Source of the DNA: a virus
Direction: 5' to 3' (one strand)
IMG/VR virus record: IMGVR_UViG_3300023216_001509
Length of the DNA: 62,979 bases
Position numbers and translations under genes: made by a program. Positions 26,422-61,686 of the stretch are shown here, one piece after another (position 1 is the stretch's first letter; every line of letters starts with the position of its first letter). The notes under the pieces are model-generated. The model was given only the letters and a program-made list of their open reading frames with translations, did no database searches and had not been told where the DNA came from.

Positions 26422-27801
26422 CTAAATTTCCATTTCCTTTTTCTCATGCCACGTCCCATTCACGGGTGTGACTTCTGCCTCCACTTCCAGCGGAGTGATT
26501 ATCCACGGCCACGCTGCCCGCAAGTCTTCCGTCATTATTTGTTTTGCGGTGGTGAGGTAGGCACCCAACTCATCCTCATGGACATCCCCCACAATACTAT
26601 CGTGAATCTGCCCAACGATTTTAGAACGCATCCTGTTTTTGCCAAGCCATTTGTTGAGGCGGATAAGCGACCACAGCAGGCAGTGAAACGCTGACCCTTG
26701 AACCGGATAATTGATAACGTCGTTCCGCCCATAAACGCCATCGATGCGAAACCCTGTCAGGGTTGTGAACCCACCTTGTCGCAAGTATTTCTCCCACCAC
26801 TTTTTCTTCCATGCATCATAAACTTGGAACCGCTCTCCCCAGAAATTCTTCTCCACGGATTTGATGTGGTGTTCAAACGTCCCACGACGAGGGGGTTGTT
26901 TTGGATTGCAGGCGCCCAGGGAACTGATCCCGTTTTCACGCAGGTGGTCTTTGAGTGGGGTGTCCTCGATACGGTGGTTCATCTTACCGATGGCCTCCCA
27001 CAACGCCCGGGCGTTGTTGATGTAATAGTCGCCATAGAATTGTGGGAAGACGAACATATTCTTTCCGCAATACCGCATCCACTTAGAGACTTGAGTGGGG
27101 TGGCACTTGTAACACTCCGCCGCCATGTCCCGATGCATATCCTTGGAAGGGTCTTCAATATAGGAAACCATTGACGGGTCTTTGTGGTAGCAGGCAGCAA
27201 CCCGAACCTCGATGCCGCTGTAATCAATTTCGACAATGTGGTGGCCTTCACGTGGTATGAAGCAACGACGAATCACCTCGCCCATCCTTGGGTCGCGAAT
27301 AGGGAAGTTCTGGAAGTTGGGGCTGTCCGAACTGCTGCGGTAGGTTTGCACGGTGTGCAAGTTGAACACGGGATGCAAGTAACCATCACAGACCTCCCGT
27401 TTAATGCCCGCCAAGAAGGTGTTCCGAACCTTCTTTATCTTTTCCAATTCCAAGTAGCGGACAACAAACGGCTCATCAATGTTTTCAAACGAGGAACCGT
27501 CTGTCTTGGGCCTGCCGGTCTTTGTGAAGGAGGAACACTTATGCCCCATGATGTTGAATAGGATGTTCCCAAGCTGCTCCCGGCTTCCCAGGTTTGCCCG
27601 GGCGCCGTATTCCCGCCGCCAGACACGGTAGACCTCCATCCCTCTTAATTCGGCCTCCCCTGCTGCGATCTGCTGGCCTATCTCTTCGGACGTGGTGTTT
27701 AGATACTCCACATCAACCCGCATTCCATTGGCCTCGACGTTGGCCAGCGCAATGCAGCCATCGTGAAGCAATCGGTAGGCGTCAGCGGTGGTTGGTTTCA
27801 T
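26422..27801 (-). CDS. polA: Family A DNA polymerase, polymerase domain only
   Basis: Motif A DYSGIEVRVAA, motif B RYCGKNMFVFPQFYG, motif C QIHDSIV. No exonuclease motifs in this ORF. Confidence 0.9.
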   Translation of the reverse strand: MKPTTADAYRLLHDGCIALANVEANGMRVDVEYLNTTSEEIGQQIAAGEAELRGMEVYRVWRREYGARANLGSREQLGNILFNIMGHKCSSFTKTGRPKTDGSSFENIDEPFVVRYLELEKIKKVRNTFLAGIKREVCDGYLHPVFNLHTVQTYRSSSDSPNFQNFPIRDPRMGEVIRRCFIPREGHHIVEIDYSGIEVRVAACYHKDPSMVSYIEDPSKDMHRDMAAECYKCHPTQVSKWMRYCGKNMFVFPQFYGDYYINNARALWEAIGKMNHRIEDTPLKDHLRENGISSLGACNPKQPPRRGTFEHHIKSVEKNFWGERFQVYDAWKKKWWEKYLRQGGFTTLTGFRIDGVYGRNDVINYPVQGSAFHCLLWSLIRLNKWLGKNRMRSKIVGQIHDSIVGDVHEDELGAYLTTAKQIMTEDLRAAWPWIITPLEVEAEVTPVNGTWHEKKEMEI

Positions 27802-29015
27802 GGCAGCGGGTGTTCCAGGATTTCCATTTGTTTGATGGCGACCTTGTACTGCAACAGGGAATCGAGTCCGTTGTAAAGCAGCAGGTCTTTCGTTTCGATT
27901 AGATCAATCTGGTTGCTCTCCTGCCCCCTTATCCCCTGCAAGAACTTTTTGATGTGACCGTCGTAACTTGGTGCGCCCAGCAAGGCGAAGGCTTGGAACT
28001 TTATACTCGTGATTCCCGGTTGGTTGTCGATCACATGGGCTGCGAGCATGGTGTCCCAGTACCAATTCCGAACTCGATGGCCGAGGTGTCGCCGTGTCCA
28101 ACGGTCTTCGAATTTCAAGTTGCAGCCAATCTTGGGAAGTGGGGAACGCAGCAGTTCACCCACCGCTGTGACGGCGTCCCCATGCCAAGGGAAGGCGATG
28201 GTATGTTTGCCCCTCCAACAGACACTAGCGGACACAATGCGGGATTCTTTGTTGTCTGGTTTGATGCGGTCTGTTTCGTAATCAAAGGCCACCGCCCCTC
28301 CCCGTTTAATCATCTTGCGAATTTGGGCAGCAGCTTTTCTTGGTTCTTGGACAATGGTTATTTCCTTGCGGTAATCCGGAACCGTGTCCCACGGTTTGCC
28401 ATCGTGTTTTAATGCGTTGGCAATATGTTTGTTGAAATGGATTCGGAGGACTGGCGCTTTCATGTGGTTGCTGTTGATGGCGTGGTTCACATAGGCGGGC
28501 GAGTACGAAGGGCAGACCCACGCATTTAATTCCTGGCAGGGGATTTGCAAACCGAACCACCGATTTGAAACGCCAATGCTCCCCTTCCAGATATAAGGAA
28601 GTAGCGACCCCACGCCAGCGGTTCCCAAGGGGATGATCACATTGGGTTGGAGCGTGTTGATTGTCTTGATAAGGTTGGGTCGGCAGTAGTCTATCTGATC
28701 GGGGGTGGGCGGCTTGCCTCCGGTATGGCAGATCAATGCGGTTGTCACCCAGCAGTCCCGTAAGATATCTCCCGAGCATTTCCGAATGGCTGTTTCCAGT
28801 GGCAGGGAACTATTCGGTCGGGACAACAACCGCCCAGCGGTGTCGTCGTTATCACAAGGCGCCTCGTATACAATCAAAACCTTCCGCTTGCCTTGCCCCA
28901 CGGGTTCAAGTTTGGGGGACTGGCATTTCTTATACAGACCACATGCCCCGCATTTAGGAATGAGGCTTGTGGGTGGTTTTGAATCAAGAACGGAACTTGA
29001 AAAGAACCCGCTCAT
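27798..29015 (-). CDS. Fusion of a UDG family-4-like domain and a DnaQ-type 3'-5' exonuclease
   Basis: The N-terminus (CGACGLYKKC...VLIVYEAPCDNDD) resembles family-4 UDG with a non-canonical active-site motif. Exonuclease motifs are AFDYETD, NLKFEDRW and YNGLDS. ATGA overlap with the polymerase ORF. Confidence 0.65.
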   Translation of the reverse strand: MSGFFSSSVLDSKPPTSLIPKCGACGLYKKCQSPKLEPVGQGKRKVLIVYEAPCDNDDTAGRLLSRPNSSLPLETAIRKCSGDILRDCWVTTALICHTGGKPPTPDQIDYCRPNLIKTINTLQPNVIIPLGTAGVGSLLPYIWKGSIGVSNRWFGLQIPCQELNAWVCPSYSPAYVNHAINSNHMKAPVLRIHFNKHIANALKHDGKPWDTVPDYRKEITIVQEPRKAAAQIRKMIKRGGAVAFDYETDRIKPDNKESRIVSASVCWRGKHTIAFPWHGDAVTAVGELLRSPLPKIGCNLKFEDRWTRRHLGHRVRNWYWDTMLAAHVIDNQPGITSIKFQAFALLGAPSYDGHIKKFLQGIRGQESNQIDLIETKDLLLYNGLDSLLQYKVAIKQMEILEHPLP

Positions 29016-36745: not shown

Positions 36746-36949
36746 TTACCTTATTATCGGAACTTGATTTTGACTTTTCGGTGGCTTGTCCTTTATTTCT
36801 TTTCTGATGATCTTCACGTCGGGTGGTGCGTCAATTCCAATTCGGGCCTTGCCGTCGGAGTGGGTACTCACCAGCACAATTCGGGCCAGCACCTCCCCAT
36901 TTAATATCAGGTGAATTTCTTCACGCAGCCTTCTTGTCAGCACCAGCAT
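36746..36949 (-). CDS. csrA: CsrA-family RNA-binding translational regulator
   Basis: MLVLTRRLREEI...ARIGIDAPPDVKIIRKEI aligns by eye with E. coli CsrA MLILTRRVGETL...VRIGVNAPKEVSVHREEI. Confidence 0.85.
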   Translation of the reverse strand: MLVLTRRLREEIHLILNGEVLARIVLVSTHSDGKARIGIDAPPDVKIIRKEIKDKPPKSQNQVPIIR

Positions 36950-36959
36950 CGCGGTCTCC

Positions 36960-37256
36960 CTATTTCACTTTTTCTACGAACTGATCCAAACCATAACTGA
37001 GAACAACTCGTTCAATATGAATCCCATTCACCAGATCAATGCTGGTGACAGCATGGGCCAGTTCGCCGTTCACGAAAACATGGCAGCACCGTTCGAGTTG
37101 TTCCCACCAATCCTCGTTCATCTCCTGCTCGACCAGGGATGGTACGAAGGGCGCCTCGACCAGCACTTTCCCATCCTCGGCACGGACTACTCCTTTTCCT
37201 GTTTCCCCACTAGGGAAAGTGATTTTGATGGCGCAGAATTCTGGGTTCGCTTTCAT
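36960..37256 (-). CDS. Hypothetical 98-aa early protein (N-terminus MKANPEF)
   Basis: ATG at 37256 lies behind the conserved leader. The longer ORF-track start merely translates the leader as PPPTKETKT. Confidence 0.5.
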   Translation of the reverse strand: MKANPEFCAIKITFPSGETGKGVVRAEDGKVLVEAPFVPSLVEQEMNEDWWEQLERCCHVFVNGELAHAVTSIDLVNGIHIERVVLSYGLDQFVEKVK

Positions 37257-37287
37257 GGTCTTGGTCTCCTTGGTTGGTGGTGGTGTT
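37257..37287 (-). promoter_or_regulatory. Conserved CA-rich leader/SD cassette
   Basis: Minus strand reads ACACCACCACCAACCAAGGAGACCAAGACC-ATG. Confidence 0.7.
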
Positions 37288-37960
37288 ACTTGCCAACGAT
37301 CATCTCGTTGCCAATGCGGGCGAGCGTGGGGTATTCCTTTTTCAAGTAATTCTTCATCTCTTGGTCGAAGGGCATTTTGATCTGGTGCCACGCACCGAAG
37401 TCGCCTTCAAGCTGGAACACGGTCATGGTCTTGCACCAGCGCTTCAGGTCACGAAGCTCAAGCCAGTTGGTAAACATCTGGCCCACAATCCAATCCAGTT
37501 TCTCCGACTCCACGTCGTAGATTACGTCATCCAGTTCGTACGTCAAATCCTGGCCGTCGGCCCAGTCCTCAAGGGTCTGTTCGATCTGACGATTGCGGCG
37601 CCATTTGCCATCCTTGCCCTTGAACGACCAGTCATAGAAGTTGGGGCCACCTTGGCCTTGATTTCGGACTTCACAAACCTTCTTGCCATTCAGATAAAGG
37701 TTGGCACTGAAGCAGTCGGTTTCCTCACTCATGTCGGCGTGGTACTTCACGGCCTTGAGTTCGACCTTGAAATGTTCCGACCCGTCGCCTTCCCCTGTCT
37801 CCACTTCATGAAAACAAGATTTACAGCAGAGGGTATAGCCTTCGGCGTCTGGCCCTTCCATGTGGAAGGTGGAGTGGGCGCCACAGCAGTCGGTCAGGCG
37901 CAGTCCAAAGTGGGGTGAAGCGAGGTTATTGTCGAATCGTTTTGTTGTTGTCGCGGTCAT
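37286..37960 (-). CDS. Hypothetical 224-aa protein with an N-terminal Cys cluster
   Basis: Leader-type RBS GAGGAGACCAAGACC-ATG. CCGAH...CCKSC motif. Confidence 0.5.
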   Translation of the reverse strand: MTATTTKRFDNNLASPHFGLRLTDCCGAHSTFHMEGPDAEGYTLCCKSCFHEVETGEGDGSEHFKVELKAVKYHADMSEETDCFSANLYLNGKKVCEVRNQGQGGPNFYDWSFKGKDGKWRRNRQIEQTLEDWADGQDLTYELDDVIYDVESEKLDWIVGQMFTNWLELRDLKRWCKTMTVFQLEGDFGAWHQIKMPFDQEMKNYLKKEYPTLARIGNEMIVGK

Positions 37961-38014
37961 GGTCTTGGTCTCCTCGTGATAGTGGTGTTGGTTACTTTAT
38001 ACTCGGAACTCGTG

Positions 38015-38066
38015 TGCAGCATTCTCCCCTCGTCCGACAACCGGACGAGGGGGTGATGGCGAACAC
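38015..38066 (-). other. Conserved post-stop hairpin element (copy X)
   Basis: Minus strand reads GUGUUCGCCAUCAC-CCCCUCGUCCG-GUUGU-CGGACGAGGGG-AGAAUGCUGCACAC. A paralogue at 46880-46931 has the same flanks and a different stem top. Confidence 0.6.
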
Positions 38067-38888
38067 TTAACTCAAGTTAACGCTGCTGTGCCAAGTGTCC
38101 AACTTTTCGCCGGACAGGTTATGATCCGTCGGGTCTCGTTCCATATCCTTTTCGAATGCCTTGCAAACCTGCGAGGCAATCCGCGACCACTTCTGGGAGG
38201 CACGAAATTCCTCCATCAACCTCACCCGAGACATGGCGTCGCTGCTGCCGAAGTTGATGTCGGAGGTGACGTGGGCAATGGCATCGTTCCGAACATCGAT
38301 GAAATAACCGAGCACCTCGTCCTTGGTCATGCGGTCATCTCCCTTTGCCTCCAGCCAGGTTTTGATCCGACTGCGCAGTTGGTGTCCGTAGGACGCGAGT
38401 GCGCCGTGGTAGAACACTTCCGAACCATGCCGACGAATTTCCTCGCCCATGTGGATAGCCGACGAGGCAGCAATCAGCTTGCCGATTTTGTCGCACTCAA
38501 TTTCGGAGGAACGAATGATGGTGGCAAGGCCACGCTCAAGTGCGAGCAAGGCGTGGGGCAGGGGCATGCGGTCGTCCCGCGAGTAATCCCAGTCACGCTT
38601 CAGGATACCCTGCCGGTATTTGGTATCGGAGAGTTCCTGCCTCGCCTGTACATCCTCCTCGTGGCGGATGTAAGGCAACAGCGCGTCCATGAGCCCATCC
38701 TTGTTGAGCTTGTGGACTGCGGACTTGGTCAGGAAGCATTTGCCTGCGTCCTCGTCCGCGGAATGGATGACGCCACCGTATTCCCAATTCTCCATCGCGG
38801 CGAAGAGGGCGTGCTTGAGGTCGACTTTGCTGTACTCGACCAGTGCGGTTGAAACTTGGTTGATGATGTTTTTGACGGTCATGGTCAT
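38067..38888 (-). CDS. Hypothetical 273-aa early protein
   Basis: ATG at 38888 lies behind the conserved leader. Confidence 0.5.
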   Translation of the reverse strand: MTMTVKNIINQVSTALVEYSKVDLKHALFAAMENWEYGGVIHSADEDAGKCFLTKSAVHKLNKDGLMDALLPYIRHEEDVQARQELSDTKYRQGILKRDWDYSRDDRMPLPHALLALERGLATIIRSSEIECDKIGKLIAASSAIHMGEEIRRHGSEVFYHGALASYGHQLRSRIKTWLEAKGDDRMTKDEVLGYFIDVRNDAIAHVTSDINFGSSDAMSRVRLMEEFRASQKWSRIASQVCKAFEKDMERDPTDHNLSGEKLDTWHSSVNLS

Positions 38889-38919
38889 GGTCTTGGTCTC
38901 CTTGGTTGGGGTTGGTGTT
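38889..38919 (-). promoter_or_regulatory. Conserved CA-rich leader/SD cassette
   Basis: Minus strand reads AACACCAACCCCAACCAAGGAGACCAAGACC-ATG. It directly abuts the hammerhead motif. Confidence 0.7.
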
Positions 38920-38970
38920 GGTCTCATCAGTGCGCGCCATAAGCGGCAGACCCCCGAGGGGGTTTCGACC
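38920..38970 (-). ncRNA. Type II hammerhead ribozyme motif (copy A)
   Basis: Minus strand reads GGUC-GAAA-CCCC(CUCG)GGGG-UC / UGCCGC(UUAUG)GCGcGCA-CUGAUGA-GACC. All invariant core positions are present. Confidence 0.8.
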
Positions 38971-38972
38971 TT

Positions 38973-39518
38973 CTACAGAACCCGGCCGAAGTCACACTCG
39001 TCAAACTTTTCGACGGCAGCTTTGACGATCGCATACTGTGCATTCATTGCAACCATCAGCCCAATGGCCCGGCCGCAGTTGAAGTTGTTTGCGCCGGCGG
39101 CGGCAAGGCTGGTTGCCTTGGCGGCGGTGTCCATCGCATCCATGAGGGCAAGCATCCCGTCGCTAGCTTTGTAATAACTATCCCGCAGGGCGTTGAAGTC
39201 ATCATTGTCCAAGTCACCCACTGCTGCGTTCAGGGTGTCGTCCTCGATGACCTTTTTCTTGGGGGCGGGTTGGACTTTGGTATCGTTCACCCACATCCCG
39301 AAGTCCTCGATGAGGTAATCAATCGCGCCGGTGCCTTCCTGCGCTTCCAGATAAGTGACGAGGCCGGCTGCCTTGTTGTGGTCATAGAGTTCAGCAAAAT
39401 ACTGATCGACCTGCTGGTGAATATGGTGACACGCGGCTTCGCTGCAGTTGATACCGATCAGCCAGTCGCACAGGTCAATTTTGAAGTTGTTAAGTTCGTT
39501 GTTTTTGGTCATGGTCAT
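38973..39518 (-). CDS. Hypothetical 181-aa early protein
   Basis: ATG at 39518 lies behind the conserved leader. Confidence 0.5.
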   Translation of the reverse strand: MTMTKNNELNNFKIDLCDWLIGINCSEAACHHIHQQVDQYFAELYDHNKAAGLVTYLEAQEGTGAIDYLIEDFGMWVNDTKVQPAPKKKVIEDDTLNAAVGDLDNDDFNALRDSYYKASDGMLALMDAMDTAAKATSLAAAGANNFNCGRAIGLMVAMNAQYAIVKAAVEKFDECDFGRVL

Positions 39519-39543
39519 GGTCTTGGTCTCCTTGGTTGGTGGG
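39519..39543 (-). promoter_or_regulatory. Conserved CA-rich leader/SD cassette
   Basis: Minus strand reads CCCACCAACCAAGGAGACCAAGACC-ATG. It fills the whole gap from the upstream stop. Confidence 0.7.
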
Positions 39544-39750
39544 TTACATCCAATTGACTTCGCCGTAGGCGAGTTCAACATAAAGGCGAAAGTCTTCAAG
39601 TGTCGTATCAAAGTCTTGGAGGTCTTCGGTGTCTGACTCGTTGAAGTATTCCTCGACGGTTTCAATCATTGTGGTCTGGTCGTCTTGGCCACAAATGTTT
39701 TCCAGCAGGGTTTCGATGATTTCAGTTTTGATTTCGTTTTGCTTGGTCAT
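39544..39750 (-). CDS. 68-aa strongly acidic early protein (first gene after promoter PL1)
   Basis: MTKQNEIKTEIIETLLENICGQDDQTTMIETVEEYFNESDTEDLQDFDTTLEDFRLYVELAYGEVNWM. Many Asp/Glu and very few basic residues. Confidence 0.55.
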   Translation of the reverse strand: MTKQNEIKTEIIETLLENICGQDDQTTMIETVEEYFNESDTEDLQDFDTTLEDFRLYVELAYGEVNWM

Positions 39751-39783
39751 TGTTTTGTCTCCTGTTTTGTTTCTTGTCTATGT

Positions 39784-39812
39784 AATATAACGGCTGTCTA
39801 AGACCCTGTCCA
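39784..39812 (-). promoter_or_regulatory. Sigma70-like promoter PL1 (TGGACA-17 nt-TATATT)
   Basis: Minus strand: -35 at 39812-39807 and -10 at 39789-39784. Near-identical copies at 47763-47791 and 61561-61589. Confidence 0.7.
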
Positions 39813-39952
39813 CTCCTATTTCCCTGATATTTTCAGGATTTCTGCCCGGGCAATTTAACGGTGATCTAAGGGGGTTTCCGGGTTCCCCGCATAATCTAGG
39901 GGCCAGGGCATGGAAGTCCCTTAGATGGGCAGCAGGGGCCACCGTGAGCAAC

Positions 39953-41347
39953 CTAGAACGTAGACCGAATGGCTGGGTTCCCCACCTCTAAACAGCCCGC
40001 GACGTGGACGCATTGGGTTTCGCTGAAAGGCGATTCCCGTAACACAATCCAATTCAACCGCATGAGCCCGCATTCCTTTTCGTCCGAGTTGGCGTTCAGC
40101 CCAACCATGCCGGTGACGTGGGCGAACTTGCGTTTGTCCTCGCTGAAGTTTGACCGCCCAATGGTGTTGGCATTGTACGAGGCGGCGTCGGCTTGGGTGG
40201 CGGTCACGACCAGGGAATGAGTAGACTGGGACAGCGCCCGAAGTTGTTTCCAAGTGGTGTTGATTTGATCACGGGTGTCCGCAATCCCATGAGGTGGAGC
40301 CAGGATATCCGCGTAGTCAATTACGATCACGTCAGGTATCCAACCACCACGTTCCCAGTTCTGGAGGATGGCACGAATGCCGCTGACCGTCAGCGTCGAG
40401 TTCGGGTGGCAGCTGAGGCGAAGCATCGCCTCCTTGGATTTGATTTTGGTTTTGATGATTCGCTGGCAGGCCTTGTAAGCGGTCTGCCATCCCATCTCGG
40501 TCGCCTCCTTCCTGTCCTCCACCACCAGCGCTGCCATTGGCGCACCAGATTCGCGTTCAATCTTTGTTGGGTATTTGTACTCCGACGGTTTCAACGGACG
40601 GCGGGCAGCGCGCACCATCAGGCGCCGCATGATTTGGTTCTGGCTCATGTCCCCCACTTCAAAGAAGGCAACTTTCCTGCGCTGGGTCATTGCCCTCCAA
40701 GCCACGTCCAACAGCCACCACGTCTTGCCTCGTTTTTCTGCCCCCATGAATGAGATGAATGCGTCACGTTGTAAGGCGGCGCCAAAGAACCTTCCCAAGG
40801 CACCAGGATATTTGATAAGGGGTTCCAGTTGTTCCTCGAACGCCTCACGGATGGCCCCCTCGTCGGACAGGGGATCAATCCCCGCGCCCACTCCCATCTC
40901 AACTTGACCATAGGTACTGACCCGCTTCAGGGCGCTGTCCAAGTTGCCGGCAGTAACGTCCCCGCTGATCGAGTCGGCAAGGCGTTTGAGTTTTACTTGG
41001 TTGAAATACTTGGACGCTAAATCAATCACGTAGTTGCTATTCGATTCTTTGCTGAGGTGTTCATGTTCCTCGGACAGGCCACCTAGGAACCGCTCCACAA
41101 TCTTGACGGTGTCTTCGTCGCGGTTGGTGCTGGCCCATGCCTCAAACAGCCCTTCGATTTCTTTCCCGGGGGCGTCCTCGTACTCGTTGAAGAAGTCAAC
41201 GCACCACCCGCCAATGAGGTTGCCCCATTGGGAACGGAACAAGTCGCCTTCCCACTTGGTTGCTATGCGGGCGAGAACCTGCTTGTCCACAATCATGCCG
41301 GTGAGGATTCGGCGTTCGTTTGACCCGTCACGCTTTGCTACCTTCAT
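39953..41347 (-). CDS. dnaB: DnaB-family replicative helicase
   Basis: Walker A GAEKRGKT, Walker B VIVIDYADIL, LVVTATQA. Confidence 0.8.
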   Translation of the reverse strand: MKVAKRDGSNERRILTGMIVDKQVLARIATKWEGDLFRSQWGNLIGGWCVDFFNEYEDAPGKEIEGLFEAWASTNRDEDTVKIVERFLGGLSEEHEHLSKESNSNYVIDLASKYFNQVKLKRLADSISGDVTAGNLDSALKRVSTYGQVEMGVGAGIDPLSDEGAIREAFEEQLEPLIKYPGALGRFFGAALQRDAFISFMGAEKRGKTWWLLDVAWRAMTQRRKVAFFEVGDMSQNQIMRRLMVRAARRPLKPSEYKYPTKIERESGAPMAALVVEDRKEATEMGWQTAYKACQRIIKTKIKSKEAMLRLSCHPNSTLTVSGIRAILQNWERGGWIPDVIVIDYADILAPPHGIADTRDQINTTWKQLRALSQSTHSLVVTATQADAASYNANTIGRSNFSEDKRKFAHVTGMVGLNANSDEKECGLMRLNWIVLRESPFSETQCVHVAGCLEVGNPAIRSTF

Positions 41348-43553: not shown

Positions 43554-44832
43554 CTAGGGTTGCGGATAGAACGGCCTGTTTCTCTTGGATGATTCGGGAC
43601 AACCTTTCCTCAATGGTGTTCACGCCGATCAAGTAATAGCACGTCGACTTGTACTGCTGCCCAATCCGGTGGATGCGGTCTTCGCCCTGAATATGCTCTC
43701 CGGGTGTCCACCCAAGTTCCGCGAACAGGACGGTGGAGGCAGCGGTGAGGGTCAGTCCTATGCCTGCCGCTTGGAGGTTCCCAATGAACAGGCGTGTTCC
43801 CTTGTGGCGTTGGAATTTGTCGACGGAGCGTTGCCGCTTTTTCCCCGTCACCTGCCCAGTCACAGTCACGCAACCCGGATAGCGTTCCTTCAGTTGCTGA
43901 ATGATGTTTTTGTGGATGGCGAACACCACAAGCTTGTCATCTGTTTCTTCCAGAAACGTGTCTATCCAATCCATCACCGCTTTGAGTTTTAGTTCGGCCG
44001 CGAGGCGTTTCAAGTATCCCATTTTGACTAGCCGCTGGGCGCGGGCAGCAGAGGTCGCCTTCTGTTTGGAATACTTGGACAGCCACAAGATCAAGTCCTC
44101 CTCGGCCTCGTCGTATTCCTTTCGGTTTTCCAAGGGGACAGGAACCGCGTGCCTTGCCTTCGCCGGCAGGTCTTTCAACACGTCCACCTTCCGCCGGCGC
44201 ACCATACAATTCGTGATGAGGATTTCATGGAGTTCGGGTAGGTTCCGAGCGCCCTTGTATTCCCAGCCCCACGGTTTCCGCTGGGCGGCACAATACTCAA
44301 GGGCGTAACTCATGAACGACTTGAACAAGTCCGGGCGGATGATGTTTAGAGTTGTCCATAACTCGGCGGGGCGGTTGGTAAGAGGTGTCCCAGACAACGC
44401 CAACACGTGAGGCACTGACTTGCACAGTTGCTTCACGTAGCGTGTCCGCTTGGCCTGCCTGTTTTTGATGTACTGGCACTCGTCCAAGATTACCAACTTG
44501 GGTTCCAAGTCCACCAGGTATTCCAACCAAGGGCCGAGGATTTCGTAATTGATAATCACGAAGGGGTTTTGCTTGAAGACCTTTTTCTTCGGCGGCTTGG
44601 TTCCCTCCAGGATTTCGGCTCGCTCCTTGATGTGGACTGCCGCTTCCCTTGCCCAGTTGTACTTGAGCGAGGCAGGGCAGATGACCACAACGGGCGACAT
44701 CTTATTGCGTTTGAAATAGTAGAGGGCTTGGATGGTCTTGCCCAGTCCCATTTCATCTGCCAGCAGGACACGGCCACCGAGCTTCTCCAGTTGTAGCACG
44801 CCTCTCTTCTGGTAGCGATAAAGTTTGGTCAT
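43480..44832 (-). CDS. SNF2-family helicase/translocase
   Basis: ADEMGLGKT, LILDECQYIKN, LSGTPLTNRPAELW, HRIGQ. The ATG at 44832 follows GGAGGTGG and forms an ATGA overlap. Confidence 0.85.
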   Translation of the reverse strand: MTKLYRYQKRGVLQLEKLGGRVLLADEMGLGKTIQALYYFKRNKMSPVVVICPASLKYNWAREAAVHIKERAEILEGTKPPKKKVFKQNPFVIINYEILGPWLEYLVDLEPKLVILDECQYIKNRQAKRTRYVKQLCKSVPHVLALSGTPLTNRPAELWTTLNIIRPDLFKSFMSYALEYCAAQRKPWGWEYKGARNLPELHEILITNCMVRRRKVDVLKDLPAKARHAVPVPLENRKEYDEAEEDLILWLSKYSKQKATSAARAQRLVKMGYLKRLAAELKLKAVMDWIDTFLEETDDKLVVFAIHKNIIQQLKERYPGCVTVTGQVTGKKRQRSVDKFQRHKGTRLFIGNLQAAGIGLTLTAASTVLFAELGWTPGEHIQGEDRIHRIGQQYKSTCYYLIGVNTIEERLSRIIQEKQAVLSATLDGGTIDEQLNIFDQLQEELTRETS

Positions 44833-45362
44833 GCCACCTCCTTCAGGATGGTAATTATTTCGGCGAAACACGCCTTGGTTTCTTCCGGTGTCCACTTATA
44901 CTCGGTCGCCAGGATTTCCTTCAGGGCTGCTTTCCCATCACGGCAACTGTCCGGAACATCTCTCCGGGTGGCGACGAGCTTGACGATCAGCCGGGCGCCT
45001 TTACTTAGTTCCCGAACAGCGCAGAAGTCCTCGAGGTCGAACTCAACTTGGATGGGGGCGGTTGCCGCCTCCAAGACACCCACGTCCTCCCGTGGTAGCA
45101 GGACGAGGTGCTGCTGTCGCACGCGCACTTCATCCTTCAGCTTCCACCAGATAAGTTGCCTCACCCAAGTGGTGAACTTCATGCCCTTGCCTTCGGTGTA
45201 TCGATCGTAAGCGGCGATGAAGATTTCTTGGGCGTAAGAGAACAAATCCTGGTAGTCCCCGCCATACTGTTTCTGAAAGTCGTGGCAGGTTTTGTGAATG
45301 AGCAGTTGCACGTCAGCGTATGTTTCCGCAAGTGCATCGCGGCGCATGGTCTTTGCCTTCAT
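44829..45362 (-). CDS. Sigma-70 family (ECF-like) sigma factor
   Basis: Region 2-like DLFSYAQEIFIAAYDRYTEGKGMKFTTWVRQLIWWKLKDEVR. Region 4-like LSKGARLIVKLV...LKEILATEYKWTPEETKACFAEI. Confidence 0.6.
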   Translation of the reverse strand: MKAKTMRRDALAETYADVQLLIHKTCHDFQKQYGGDYQDLFSYAQEIFIAAYDRYTEGKGMKFTTWVRQLIWWKLKDEVRVRQQHLVLLPREDVGVLEAATAPIQVEFDLEDFCAVRELSKGARLIVKLVATRRDVPDSCRDGKAALKEILATEYKWTPEETKACFAEIITILKEVA

Positions 45363-45412
45363 GGCTTTGGTCTCCATTTGAAGTGGCGCTTCGTGAATTG
45401 GTATTTTACCAC

Positions 45413-45435: not shown

Positions 45436-45474
45436 TATAAAAAGGAACCCTCCCGAGGGATGTCCCCGGGAGGG
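45436..45474 (-). terminator. Rho-independent terminator after the DUF932 gene
   Basis: On the minus strand, a CCCUCCCG...CGGGAGGG stem is followed by UUCCUUUUUAUA. Confidence 0.65.
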
Positions 45475-45487
45475 CGCCGGCCAGGTT

Positions 45488-46222
45488 TTAGTTAGCGGAG
45501 AAACAGTCCCTCGCGTTTGGGAGCAATGCCCTGAACCGATTCATCTGGTTCATCTGCTCGATGGGCGGGTTGCGCTTCACGGTGTGCGTGAACGCATTGA
45601 GCAGCGCCCAACTTGTGTCACGTCCGTGCTCGGCGAAGGTGGGGTTGCGGTACTCTTTGTCCACAGCACCAATTCGCGACCAAGGCATGAGTCGGTTTCG
45701 GCCCGCTTCCATCAAAATCTCGTCAGCCTGAGCTGGACGAAGTTTGTTGTTGCGGAGGTCTTCCACCACCTCGTTGATGCCGCGTGCCTTGGCGACATAC
45801 TGGTCAAGGGCTGCTTCAATTTCCCCGAACAGCTGAAAGCCATGAGTATGCTTCCGCTGCATGACGATCTCGCCTGTTGCCATCCCGTTGTTACAGACGA
45901 CGACGTTGGTTCCCACAACCAGCAGCAACGAGCGCCGCATCATGTTGGAGGTGAGGAACCCAAGGGACAACTCCTGCCCCTCCGGCGCGTCCAGTCCCTT
46001 GATGTCCAAAGTGAACGCCCCGGCGAGGTCTGCCTTGTCCTTGGACACAGCAAAGCGCTGGCCCTTGATAACCCAACCACGGGTTCCGATTTCATCAACC
46101 AGTGCCGATGCTAATGCACCATGCGGTATCCCTTGCCAGTACGCGCCGGCCTTGGCTGGGCGCTGCAGGGGGATGCGGTTCAGGTCGGCGAGGGACGTGT
46201 TGGCTCCGTAAACAGTAATCAT
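45488..46222 (-). CDS. DUF932-family protein
   Basis: LLLVVGTNVVVCNNGM...TSWALLNAFTHTVK pattern typical of DUF932 proteins of phages, plasmids and ICEs. Confidence 0.55.
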   Translation of the reverse strand: MITVYGANTSLADLNRIPLQRPAKAGAYWQGIPHGALASALVDEIGTRGWVIKGQRFAVSKDKADLAGAFTLDIKGLDAPEGQELSLGFLTSNMMRRSLLLVVGTNVVVCNNGMATGEIVMQRKHTHGFQLFGEIEAALDQYVAKARGINEVVEDLRNNKLRPAQADEILMEAGRNRLMPWSRIGAVDKEYRNPTFAEHGRDTSWALLNAFTHTVKRNPPIEQMNQMNRFRALLPNARDCFSAN

Positions 46223-46265: not shown

Positions 46266-46279
46266 AATATACTCGGAAC
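46266..46279 (-). promoter_or_regulatory. CCGAGTATA-box promoter-like element (copy 3)
   Basis: Minus strand reads GTTCCGAGTATATT, 44 nt upstream of the ATG at 46222. Confidence 0.4.
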
Positions 46280-46931: not shown

Positions 46932-47327
46932 CTATGCGCCGTTGATCAGTGCCAGCTTGGCAGCAATCGAATCGGCACCGAACTTGAAAGCCTTGCCGGA
47001 GCGGACTTCCGTGGCAGAGATGGGGTACTTGCGTCGACGCGACTTCAGTCCCGTGATGACGAACAGGTTCCCACGGCTGTTGAACTCCTTGCCAAGGTCT
47101 GACGGCTGCAGTCCGTAGCTGGCTGCATGCCGCTTGAAGTCCTCGGCCTCTTGGGAAAAGACTTCCCCGTCCTCGGACACTTCGCTACCCACGACTTTGA
47201 AGGTGGCGGTGTTGTCCGTGTAACTGACACTCCCCATTTCAAACTTCATTCCAGTGGCCTCTTCGATGGTTCGCAGGGCCGCTTCAATTCGCAACTTGAC
47301 GCTCGTGATGTAAACTCTGTCGATCAT
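46932..47327 (-). CDS. Hypothetical 131-aa early protein
   Basis: RBS GGGAGACC. Confidence 0.5.
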   Translation of the reverse strand: MIDRVYITSVKLRIEAALRTIEEATGMKFEMGSVSYTDNTATFKVVGSEVSEDGEVFSQEAEDFKRHAASYGLQPSDLGKEFNSRGNLFVITGLKSRRRKYPISATEVRSGKAFKFGADSIAAKLALINGA

Positions 47328-47359
47328 TGTGGTCTCCCGAAAAGTGGTTAAGTGCTGAT

Positions 47360-47409
47360 GGTCTCATCAGGCCCGGAACAACCGGACGACCCCCGAAGGG
47401 GTTTCGACC
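47360..47409 (-). ncRNA. Type II hammerhead ribozyme motif (copy B)
   Basis: Minus strand reads GGUC-GAAA-CCCC(UUCG)GGGG-UC / GUCCGG(UUGUU)CCGGGC-CUGAUGA-GACC. It begins at the last base of the upstream stop codon. Confidence 0.8.
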
Positions 47410-47720
47410 TACTCCTCGGTTTCCAGCAGCATGAACTCGTAGAGGATTGCTTCAAGTCTTGCCAGCCCTTCGATGGTCTTGTCGGCAAGGTAATCCTCGG
47501 AGTGCAGGACGAGGTAATAGCTGTCCACGTTTTCCTCGATCGTCCAGCCCTCACCGTAGACAAGCACGGCCACTGCCTCGCTGTCGAACACGCCGAGGCC
47601 ATCCCACGGCCCGTCAGCGTTGCGGATTACAGTTGCCCTGAAAGCATTGAAGTTAACCAGGTGATTTAGGATGTTGAATTTGAAAGGGCGGAAAATCTCA
47701 TCATGTTTGGTTGTGGTCAT
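47409..47720 (-). CDS. Hypothetical 103-aa early protein (first gene after promoter PL2)
   Basis: ATG at 47720 lies behind a leader variant (CAACCAAGGAAACCAAGACG-ATG). Confidence 0.5.
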   Translation of the reverse strand: MTTTKHDEIFRPFKFNILNHLVNFNAFRATVIRNADGPWDGLGVFDSEAVAVLVYGEGWTIEENVDSYYLVLHSEDYLADKTIEGLARLEAILYEFMLLETEE

Positions 47721-47762
47721 CGTCTTGGTTTCCTTGGTTGAAGTTGGTGTCCTTGTCCATGT

Positions 47763-47791
47763 AATATATCGGCTGTCTAAAACCACGTCTA
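47763..47791 (-). promoter_or_regulatory. Sigma70-like promoter PL2 (TAGACG-17 nt-TATATT)
   Basis: Shares the TAGACAGCCGATATATTACATGGACAAG core with PL1 and PL3. Confidence 0.6.
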
Positions 47792-47854
47792 TCCCTTTTC
47801 CCTTGATTTTCTTGGGTTTTCGTTTGCCCCCTTATTTTCGTATCCGAATTGAAA

Positions 47855-61526: not shown

Positions 61527-61560
61527 GGTTGGTCTCCGTTGAGTTACTGCTTGTCCATGT

Positions 61561-61589
61561 AATATATCGGCTGTATAAAACCCTGTCCA
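61561..61589 (-). promoter_or_regulatory. Sigma70-like promoter PL3 (TGGACA-17 nt-TATATT)
   Basis: About 70 nt (61551-61617) is nearly identical to 39771-39840, including the upstream palindrome cctgatattttcagg. Confidence 0.7.
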
Positions 61590-61686
61590 CTCCTATTCCC
61601 TGATATTTTCAGGAAATCCTTTAGGGGGCAGGACGCTACCTGACGCACCTGAACCACCTGACGGGCTCATGCCCAACCTGACCATC

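Follow-up and report, generated by a model that had tools for sequence, protein, structure and literature searches.

Between two genes on the minus strand of the viral record IMGVR_UViG_3300023216_001509 lies a 51-nt interval, and the question is whether it encodes an RNA that cuts the message in which it is transcribed. The whole stretch analyzed here (62,979 nt, hereafter the window) belongs to a siphovirus-like phage and encodes a large terminase subunit, portal, tape-measure protein, DnaB and primase, together with an SNF2 helicase and a split DNA polymerase. The best GenBank phage relative of the large terminase subunit is 38% identical. The family A-like DNA polymerase appears to be divided between two adjacent overlapping minus-strand ORFs (26422-27801 and 27798-29015), both of which match PHROG 17 in consecutive parts of the profile. 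From its sequence, the interval very probably is a functional self-cleaving type II hammerhead ribozyme at a phage gene junction. It is a new example of a kind known since 2011, and phage hammerheads have already been described.

Sequence and predicted fold of the junction element

Read directly, positions 38970 to 38920 of the minus strand are GGUCGAAACCCCCUCGGGGGUCUGCCGCUUAUGGCGCGCACUGAUGAGACC (51 nt); we refer to this element as copy A (Table 1). The earlier note had read it as a hammerhead with every invariant position in place, and the sequence bears this out: the core, the A15.1-U16.1 pair, C17 in a GUC triplet and the G10.1-C11.1 pair are all found where the numbering puts them. A15.1 (38963) and U16.1 (38950) close a 5-bp stem III with a CUCG loop, and the core-adjacent pairs G10.1-C11.1, A15.1-U16.1 and U1.1-A2.1 are all present. 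Loops cap both stem I and stem III, and stem II is formed by the 5′ and 3′ ends; because this 4-bp helix (GGUC/GACC) is open, the motif is type II. The bulged C in stem I is treated as an insertion by covariance model R2, described below. Hammerhead numbering is well established and places the predicted cleavage between 38949 and 38948, the bond named in the note.

The helix assignment and the type II topology are upheld by the sequence, by the minimum free energy (MFE) fold and by a descriptor match. The MFE fold of the isolated 51-mer is the hammerhead secondary structure with all three helices, and in the context of the flanking sequence the hammerhead fold lies within 1.2 kcal/mol of the MFE fold. 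Folding energies are ordinary, with z-scores of −1.4 for the isolated 51-mer of copy A and −0.8 for a second copy, copy B. The motif begins 2 nt past the stop codon of 38973..39518, at a gene boundary, as had been claimed.

Table 1. Coordinates of the two hammerhead copies and of associated features in the window.
Feature	Position	Strand	Basis or remark
Copy A, type II hammerhead	38920..38970	−	sequence, descriptor, covariance model, MFE fold
Stem II 3′ strand GGUC (11.4-11.1)	38967..38970	−	pairs with GACC at 38920-38923
G12 A13 A14	38966-38964	−	sequence read
Stem III hairpin ACCCC-CUCG-GGGGU	38950..38963	−	A15.1-U16.1 and four C-G pairs
C17, predicted cleavage-site nucleotide, GUC triplet	38949	−	sequence read and hammerhead numbering
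Stem I hairpin UGCCGC-UUAUG-GCG(C)GCA	38931..38948	−	6 bp, one bulged C at 38934
Core strand C3 U4 G5 A6 U7 G8 A9 (CUGAUGA)	38924..38930	−	sequence read
Stem II 5′ strand GACC (10.1-10.4)	38920-38923	−	G10.1 pairs with C11.1
TAG stop of upstream ORF 38973..39518	38973..38975	−	2 nt before the ribozyme
A/C-rich leader, Shine-Dalgarno sequence and ATG of gene 38067..38888	38886..38919	−	sequence read
Copy B, type II hammerhead	47360..47409	−	descriptor, RF02276 24.1 bits, R2 59.7 bits
CUGAUG-AGAC-CAUCAG inverted repeat, copy B only	47355..47370	−	perfect 6 bp
Copies of leader AAGGAGACCAAGACCATG	37254-37271, 37958-37975, 38886-38903, 39516-39533, 45360-45377, 47718-47735	−	
Sigma-70-like promoter candidate TGGACA-17-TATATT	39784..39812	−	promoter scan, consensus match only
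Promoter-like repeats	39775-39845, 47755-47800, 61548-61608	−	about 60 nt in two copies read
12-mer GTTCCGAGTATA	37998-38009, 46268-46279	−	upstream of 37286-37960 and 45488-46222
Intrinsic-terminator-like hairpin, strong	45447-45475	−	12 bp, 9 G-C, U-rich tail

A second copy with a core-complementary tail

Copy B reads GGUCGAAACCCCUUCGGGGGUCGUCCGGUUGUUCCGGGCCUGAUGAGACC from 47409 to 47360 (direct read), with predicted cleavage between 47388 and 47387, and the TAG stop of the gene upstream overlaps its first G. The hammerhead core, C3-A9 and G12-A14 with H17 at the cleavage site, is found in both copies. The two are alike in the core, in stem II and at every paired position of stem III, whose loops are one base apart (CUCG in copy A, UUCG in copy B). 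Stem I is entirely unlike in sequence and is still paired in both; in copy B it is GUCCGG-UUGUU-CCGGGC (6 bp).

Directly 3′ of stem II, copy B continues with AUCAG, and in the predicted fold the resulting CUGAUG/CAUCAG hairpin would sequester the catalytic core strand. The 3′ product is predicted to fold mainly through this hairpin (−16.1 kcal/mol, z −3.3), and in context the alternative fold comes out 8.6 kcal/mol more stable than the hammerhead. In other viral contigs too, CAUCAG is found as the tail of type II hammerheads, whose stem II takes five different sequences, and among matches to CTGATGAG-N(2-6)-CATCAG the hammerhead-linked ones stand at the spacing of a 4-bp stem II (10/13). We found no relevant description of such a tail in natural hammerheads in the searchable literature. 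As judged from these folds, the tail might lock the RNA once it is cut or act as a kinetic switch, and it provides a testable lead as to whether some such ribozymes are regulated or locked after cleavage. Copy A has no CAUCAG-type tail, and the lead does not apply there. We also observed a long-range pairing of CCGAGGAGU with ACUUUUCGG that brackets copy B and touches the Shine-Dalgarno region of the next gene.

Descriptor and covariance-model searches

A generic type II descriptor was written without reference to specific helix sequences: CUGANGA, GAAA, a 4-bp stem II, UH, a stem III with a closing A-U pair and no fewer than 4 bp, and a stem I of 5 bp or more. It matched the window twice, at copies A and B, and gave no match in 300 dinucleotide-preserving shuffles. 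At the remaining CUGANGA sites in the window the required helices are absent. There is no third copy in the window: full-model scans with models R1 and R2, filters off, gave at most 12.5 bits elsewhere.

The earlier note had pointed to the Rfam covariance models as a check and had counted the lack of a match above threshold against its own call. No such match was obtained with RF02276 (Hammerhead_II), so that, taken formally, the check went against the motif: the gathering score is 37 bits, and copies A and B scored 23.9 and 24.1 bits, with E = 1.8 over the whole window. A scan of the whole window against Rfam at gathering thresholds gave no match. At permissive E-values the only matches were the two sub-threshold Hammerhead_II ones and implausible matches to tsr1 and mir-H20; no twister, pistol, hatchet or type I or III hammerhead was found in the window.

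In the consensus of the printed RF02276 alignments, stem II has 2 bp and the tail after it is pseudoknotted with a long loop I. Stem II of copies A and B has 4 bp, their loop I has 5 nt, and their tails are left unmatched by the model; their low scores arise because the model expects a pseudoknot tail that neither has. In a control scan of twelve viral contigs with RF02276, 12/12 pseudoknot-less hammerheads with a 4-bp stem II fell below threshold, whereas nine matches of the pseudoknot type, in contigs L038, L040 and L042, reached it. The RF02276 miss is thus a gap in the coverage of the model and not a fault of the motif, and phage annotation pipelines that apply gathering thresholds would under-count pseudoknot-less type II ribozymes. 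No complement to loop I of copy A (UUAUG) is present in its adjacent tail, AACACCAACC. The only one, CCAUGA at the start codon about 30 nt downstream, is not conserved in the family, and we rejected this pairing as due to chance.

Model R2 was trained on 21 unrelated viral examples from other contigs, with the window excluded. It gave 56.7 bits (E 2.7e-12) for copy A and 59.7 bits (E 4.5e-13) for copy B, scores that are partly circular since the training set was gathered with the window's own core and stem II pattern. The runner-up in the window had 12.4 bits.

Covariation and anatomy of a pseudoknot-less subclass

We searched with the pattern GTCGAAAC-N-GTC-N-CTGATGAGAC, which leaves stems I and III free, and found it in at least 120 viral contigs, often as 2-7 copies within a few kilobases. 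The stricter GGTC...GACC form matches 119 stretches of genome assemblies that come from bacteria and archaea of many phyla. In an alignment of 23 sequences, 99.1% of the cells in stems I and III are paired, as compared to 70.9% in shuffles. Nine pairs show two-sided changes, namely all six of stem I and three of stem III, and copy A is alone among the 23 in having a bulged base in stem I. A further alignment held 30 additional hammerheads in which stem II was not fixed. Here two-sided changes occur in 13/15 pairs, stem II included, and 99.8% of cells are paired, counts that lean toward pairing as the alignment was fitted to the model structure. The only invariant pairs are C11.1-G10.1 and A15.1-U16.1, the two expected to be invariant in hammerheads. 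Stem II variants in the family include GGAC/GUCC, GACC/GGUC, GAUC/GAUC and AUUC/GAAU. Compensatory helix changes are thus found at each level compared (stem I of copy A vs. copy B and the two alignments), and two-sided changes in three helices across dozens of contigs indicate, at the level of sequence comparison, selection on RNA pairing.

Among 39 distinct GGUC/GACC members, the base 5′ of stem II is A in 39/39 and the base 3′ of it is a purine in 36/39. Stem I of the aligned sequences has 6 bp and a 5-nt loop that begins with U. A stop codon lies at most 4 nt upstream in 31/38 family members, and a Shine-Dalgarno sequence and start codon follow 11-40 nt downstream. By these sequence features, copies A and B belong to a pseudoknot-less subclass that is common at junctions between a stop codon and a ribosome binding site in phage contigs. 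In fast natural hammerheads a tertiary contact keeps stems I and II parallel. With its A at −1, purine at +1 and U-first loop I, the subclass has features that suggest a contact resembling a loop-loop interaction. The pseudoknot of the Perreault/RF02276 type II consensus is not found in copy A, and with this contact the only tertiary candidate, activity at physiological Mg2+ is not assured. In contigs L042, L271, L272, L278 and L141 there are 4-7 type II hammerheads within about 1.5-4 kb, at nearly every junction. One of those in L141 (4878-4932) has a G at A14 (CGAGAC) and may be an inactive copy.

Comparison with characterized hammerheads

Clustered type II hammerheads were reported in 2011 to flank prophage genes, and polycistronic transcripts of about 2 kb that contain them cleave in vitro (PMC3088659). 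The type II hammerheads of Perreault et al. and RF02276 share with the window copies an identical core, the GUC site, a three-helix junction with capped stems I and III and an open stem II, and a position between phage operon genes, often with several per genome; the role proposed by Perreault et al., processing of polycistronic phage mRNA, is also the same. They differ in that their consensus joins loop I to the 3′ tail in a pseudoknot and allows stem II to shrink to 2 bp, whereas the window copies have a 4-bp stem II and a 5-nt loop I that make a pseudoknot impossible. The pseudoknot was described for the "majority" of type II hammerheads, not for every one (PMC3088659).

The closest characterized counterpart is the intergenic hammerhead of Burkholderia phage Bcep176, which we located in NC_007497 (12169-12237, plus strand) via a primer in the supplement of PMC3088659 and which reads TAA-TA-GGUC-GAAAC...UGCACG-UUAUG-CGUGUA-CUGCUGA-GAUC-A in the genome. 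It is of the same subclass as copy A, with its TAA stop, an A and GGUC-GAAAC, and has in common with it a 6-bp stem I and an identical UUAUG loop. Like the window copies it lacks a pseudoknot, and its stem II, again of 4 bp, has an A after it. Its core carries the change A6C (CUGCUGA) where the window copies have the consensus, its stem III is far longer, and its place is an operon end that faces a convergent gene. Self-cleavage of Bcep176 was measured and is slow (<0.1 per min), which was tied to the A6C change (PMC3088659).

In Desulfovibrio vulgaris, three type II hammerheads beside phage genes cleave in vivo, as detected by cyPhyRNA-seq (PMC8782182). These lie in phage-derived regions, and their 2′,3′-cyclic phosphate and 5′-OH ends were captured in vivo; organism and genes are other than those of the window, and the comparison covers type and setting. 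For the hammerheads of Schistosoma and sTRSV (type I/III), loop contacts of the form UNmYN / RNnA have been drawn (Figure S5 of PMC3088659). They have in common with the present subclass a stem I of about 6 bp with a U-first loop and a 4-bp stem II, the 5′ A and 3′ purine of the subclass taking the R...A positions of loop II. By this analogy the tertiary contact may be the same, although "loop II" is closed in type I/III and open in the subclass, where the mRNA runs on in both directions. The biological role of bacterial and phage hammerheads has been called "largely elusive" (PMC6765202).

Transcriptional context and predicted processing of a putative early mRNA

Both ribozymes are encoded in a long minus-strand block and share the strand of the flanking genes. 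Gene 38067..38888 has an AAGGAG Shine-Dalgarno sequence at 38898-38903 and an ATG at 38886-38888, and the start with a proper Shine-Dalgarno sequence is 38888. The AUG within the core CUGAUGA (38925-38927, minus strand) is in frame with this gene, and mechanical ORF callers extend it to 38927 for that reason.

A promoter-like 22-mer occurs three times on the minus strand, with 0 expected. The repeat consists of TGGACA or TAGACG, a 17-nt spacer and TATATT, with the core TTAGACAGCCGNTATATTACAT, and the TGGACA-17-TATATT element is present at 39784-39812, at 47763-47791 and near 61557 (minus strand). Downstream of two of the three repeats, one or two small ORFs precede a hammerhead (copy B at about 370 nt and copy A at about 830 nt), while the third, at about 61.5 kb, is followed by none. 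The promoter candidate at 39784..39812 is the likely start of the copy A transcript, about 830 nt upstream of the predicted cleavage site. No terminator-like site was found by the terminator scan between promoter repeat and ribozyme. The upstream repeat and the uninterrupted interval, although consensus matches only, support the polycistronic early mRNA that the earlier note had assumed. A strong terminator-like hairpin lies between the DUF932 gene and a sigma-like gene (Table 1), so the 8.4 kb between the two hammerheads are probably not one transcript.

Judged from the motif and its setting, copy A most likely cuts a polycistronic, presumably early message at the 38949/38948 bond. The transcribed 51-nt RNA would fold into three helices around the conserved core. 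In hammerhead chemistry the 2′-OH of C17 attacks the 3′ phosphate, leaving a 2′,3′-cyclic phosphate and a 5′-OH; here C17 (38949) would attack the adjacent phosphate and the chain would break at 38949/38948. The upstream message, with ORFs 39544-39750 and 38973-39518, would end in the stem III hairpin and a C17 2′,3′-cyclic phosphate, and the downstream message, from 38067-38888 onward, would begin with a 5′-OH and the stem I hairpin, ahead of an A/C-rich leader without structure and then the Shine-Dalgarno sequence and the AUG. Only the 4-bp stem II would then link the products, and its melting would allow ready separation. One polycistronic transcript would thereby give two independent hairpin-capped mRNAs that can differ in stability and translation, and the promoter-proximal small genes would be uncoupled in both respects from the genes downstream. 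Copy B would act in the same way in another predicted early transcript, whose first gene it follows.

That the subclass as a whole is distinct, abundant, centered on phages and systematically missed by Rfam, and that it works as a cistron separator, is a broader proposal that we regard as possible and put forward tentatively. The type II topology might then have been selected because each new RNA end is left with a hairpin that protects it. In one variant of the subclass, to which copy B belongs, the conserved CAUCAG tail would refold onto the catalytic CUGAUG strand, and could serve as an irreversibility lock after cleavage or as a switch that ties cleavage to the kinetics of transcription or translation. 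The phage provides a clean test case, with two consensus-core ribozymes that lie a few hundred nucleotides past a repeated promoter-like element, both directly between a stop codon and the next ribosome binding site.

Related contigs and possible mobility of the element

The proteins encoded by 38067-38888, 38973-39518, 46932-47327 and 47409-47723 have no match in Pfam, PHROG or NCBIfam, the 38067-38888 protein has no PDB sequence match, and megablast of 37000-41000 against GenBank phages gave no match. For the protein downstream of copy A, only two metagenomic contigs were found, both 100% identical, and these therefore provide no informative orthologous junction. The closest related contig, IMGVR_UViG_3300045738_000296 (L125), has about 72% nucleotide identity to the window over the replication genes. 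L125 has no hammerhead and also lacks ORFs 38973-39518, 38067-38888 and 37286-37960 (compared intervals, window about 36900-39500 and L125 11600-12150). This phage lineage can therefore do without the element, and copy A lies inside a variable insert. Of 78 DnaB-related contigs scanned (L125-L202), five carry hammerheads, at other positions, and more distant relatives have 1-4 hammerheads at other junctions. From these relatives, conservation at the copy A junction cannot be shown, and the ribozymes seem to travel with variable gene cassettes.

Alternative explanations

An active hammerhead with some role other than simple constitutive cistron separation is an unlikely reading. Alternative folding could gate cleavage, as could a ribosome that terminates 0-4 nt upstream and melts stem II; alternatively, the special ends (5′-OH, 2′,3′-cyclic phosphate) could alter decay, permit re-ligation or circularization, or counter host defenses. 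The tail of copy B argues for gating, both through the alternative fold, predicted in context to be more stable by 8.6 kcal/mol, and through its retention beside five stem II sequences in other contigs, but copy A has no tail and its hammerhead fold in context stays close to the MFE (≤1.2 kcal/mol). The closeness of the stop codon in 31/38 family members fits coupling to the ribosome, yet it may just mirror the compactness of phage genomes. Reviews call the function of bacterial and phage hammerheads unresolved (PMC6765202), which leaves room for such roles; Perreault et al. sought spliced or circular products and found none (PMC3088659).

We consider it very improbable that copy A is a decayed or weakly active relic that rides a mobile gene cassette and is no longer functional in this phage. 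Its bulged C, unique among the 23 aligned sequences, could be a sign of decay, but stem I bulges are tolerated in natural hammerheads. The element has no pseudoknot, it is absent along with its flanking genes from L125, and Bcep176, of the same subclass, is slow at <0.1 per min (PMC3088659); against this, the slowness of Bcep176 was put down to A6C, which is absent here, all core positions are consensus and every core-adjacent pair is intact. Moreover, both copies in the window retain perfect cores while their stems I have diverged with compensation. Hardly credible at all is the reading without an RNA enzyme, in which the element would be a chance pair of hairpins, a DNA-level repeat (one that marks a recombination boundary or is bound by a protein), or a terminator of transcription. 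Its position at the edge of a variable gene cassette, beside a repeated leader, and the lack of a significant Rfam match fit this reading, but the motif occurred in 0/300 shuffles, compensatory changes affect all three helices in dozens of contigs, and the invariant positions are exactly those of the hammerhead catalytic core. The terminator candidate was rejected, as neither hairpin is followed by a U-run and the terminator scan gave no match at this site. A functional type II hammerhead at the gene junction is the reading that we retain.

Other repeated elements

The earlier note had described the leader of gene 38067..38888 as conserved, and this holds within the window: AAGGAGACCAAGACCATG occurs six times on the minus strand with at most 3 mismatches, where 0.08 are expected by chance. 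It heads six minus-strand genes and is often preceded by an A/C-rich CAACC run. Four of the leader-headed genes lie at 36.9-39.5 kb, a region partly missing from L125, and short matches to the leader are also seen at several L125 gene starts. The leader could mark the edge of a cassette or serve as a site of recombination.

An inverted repeat, UCGUCAAA...UUUGACGA (8-9 bp), is present at 38992-39034 and can be read on both strands. It falls within ORF 38973-39518, at the 3′ end and roughly 20 nt upstream of the ribozyme, and surfaced as a spurious mir-2 match. In ORF 44829-45377 (minus strand), similarity to sigma-70/SigI region 2 is weak (E 8e-8) and falls far short of the family cut-off. Taken with the pair of GTTCCGAGTATA sites (Table 1), this sigma-like ORF may represent a phage sigma factor with a promoter class of its own.
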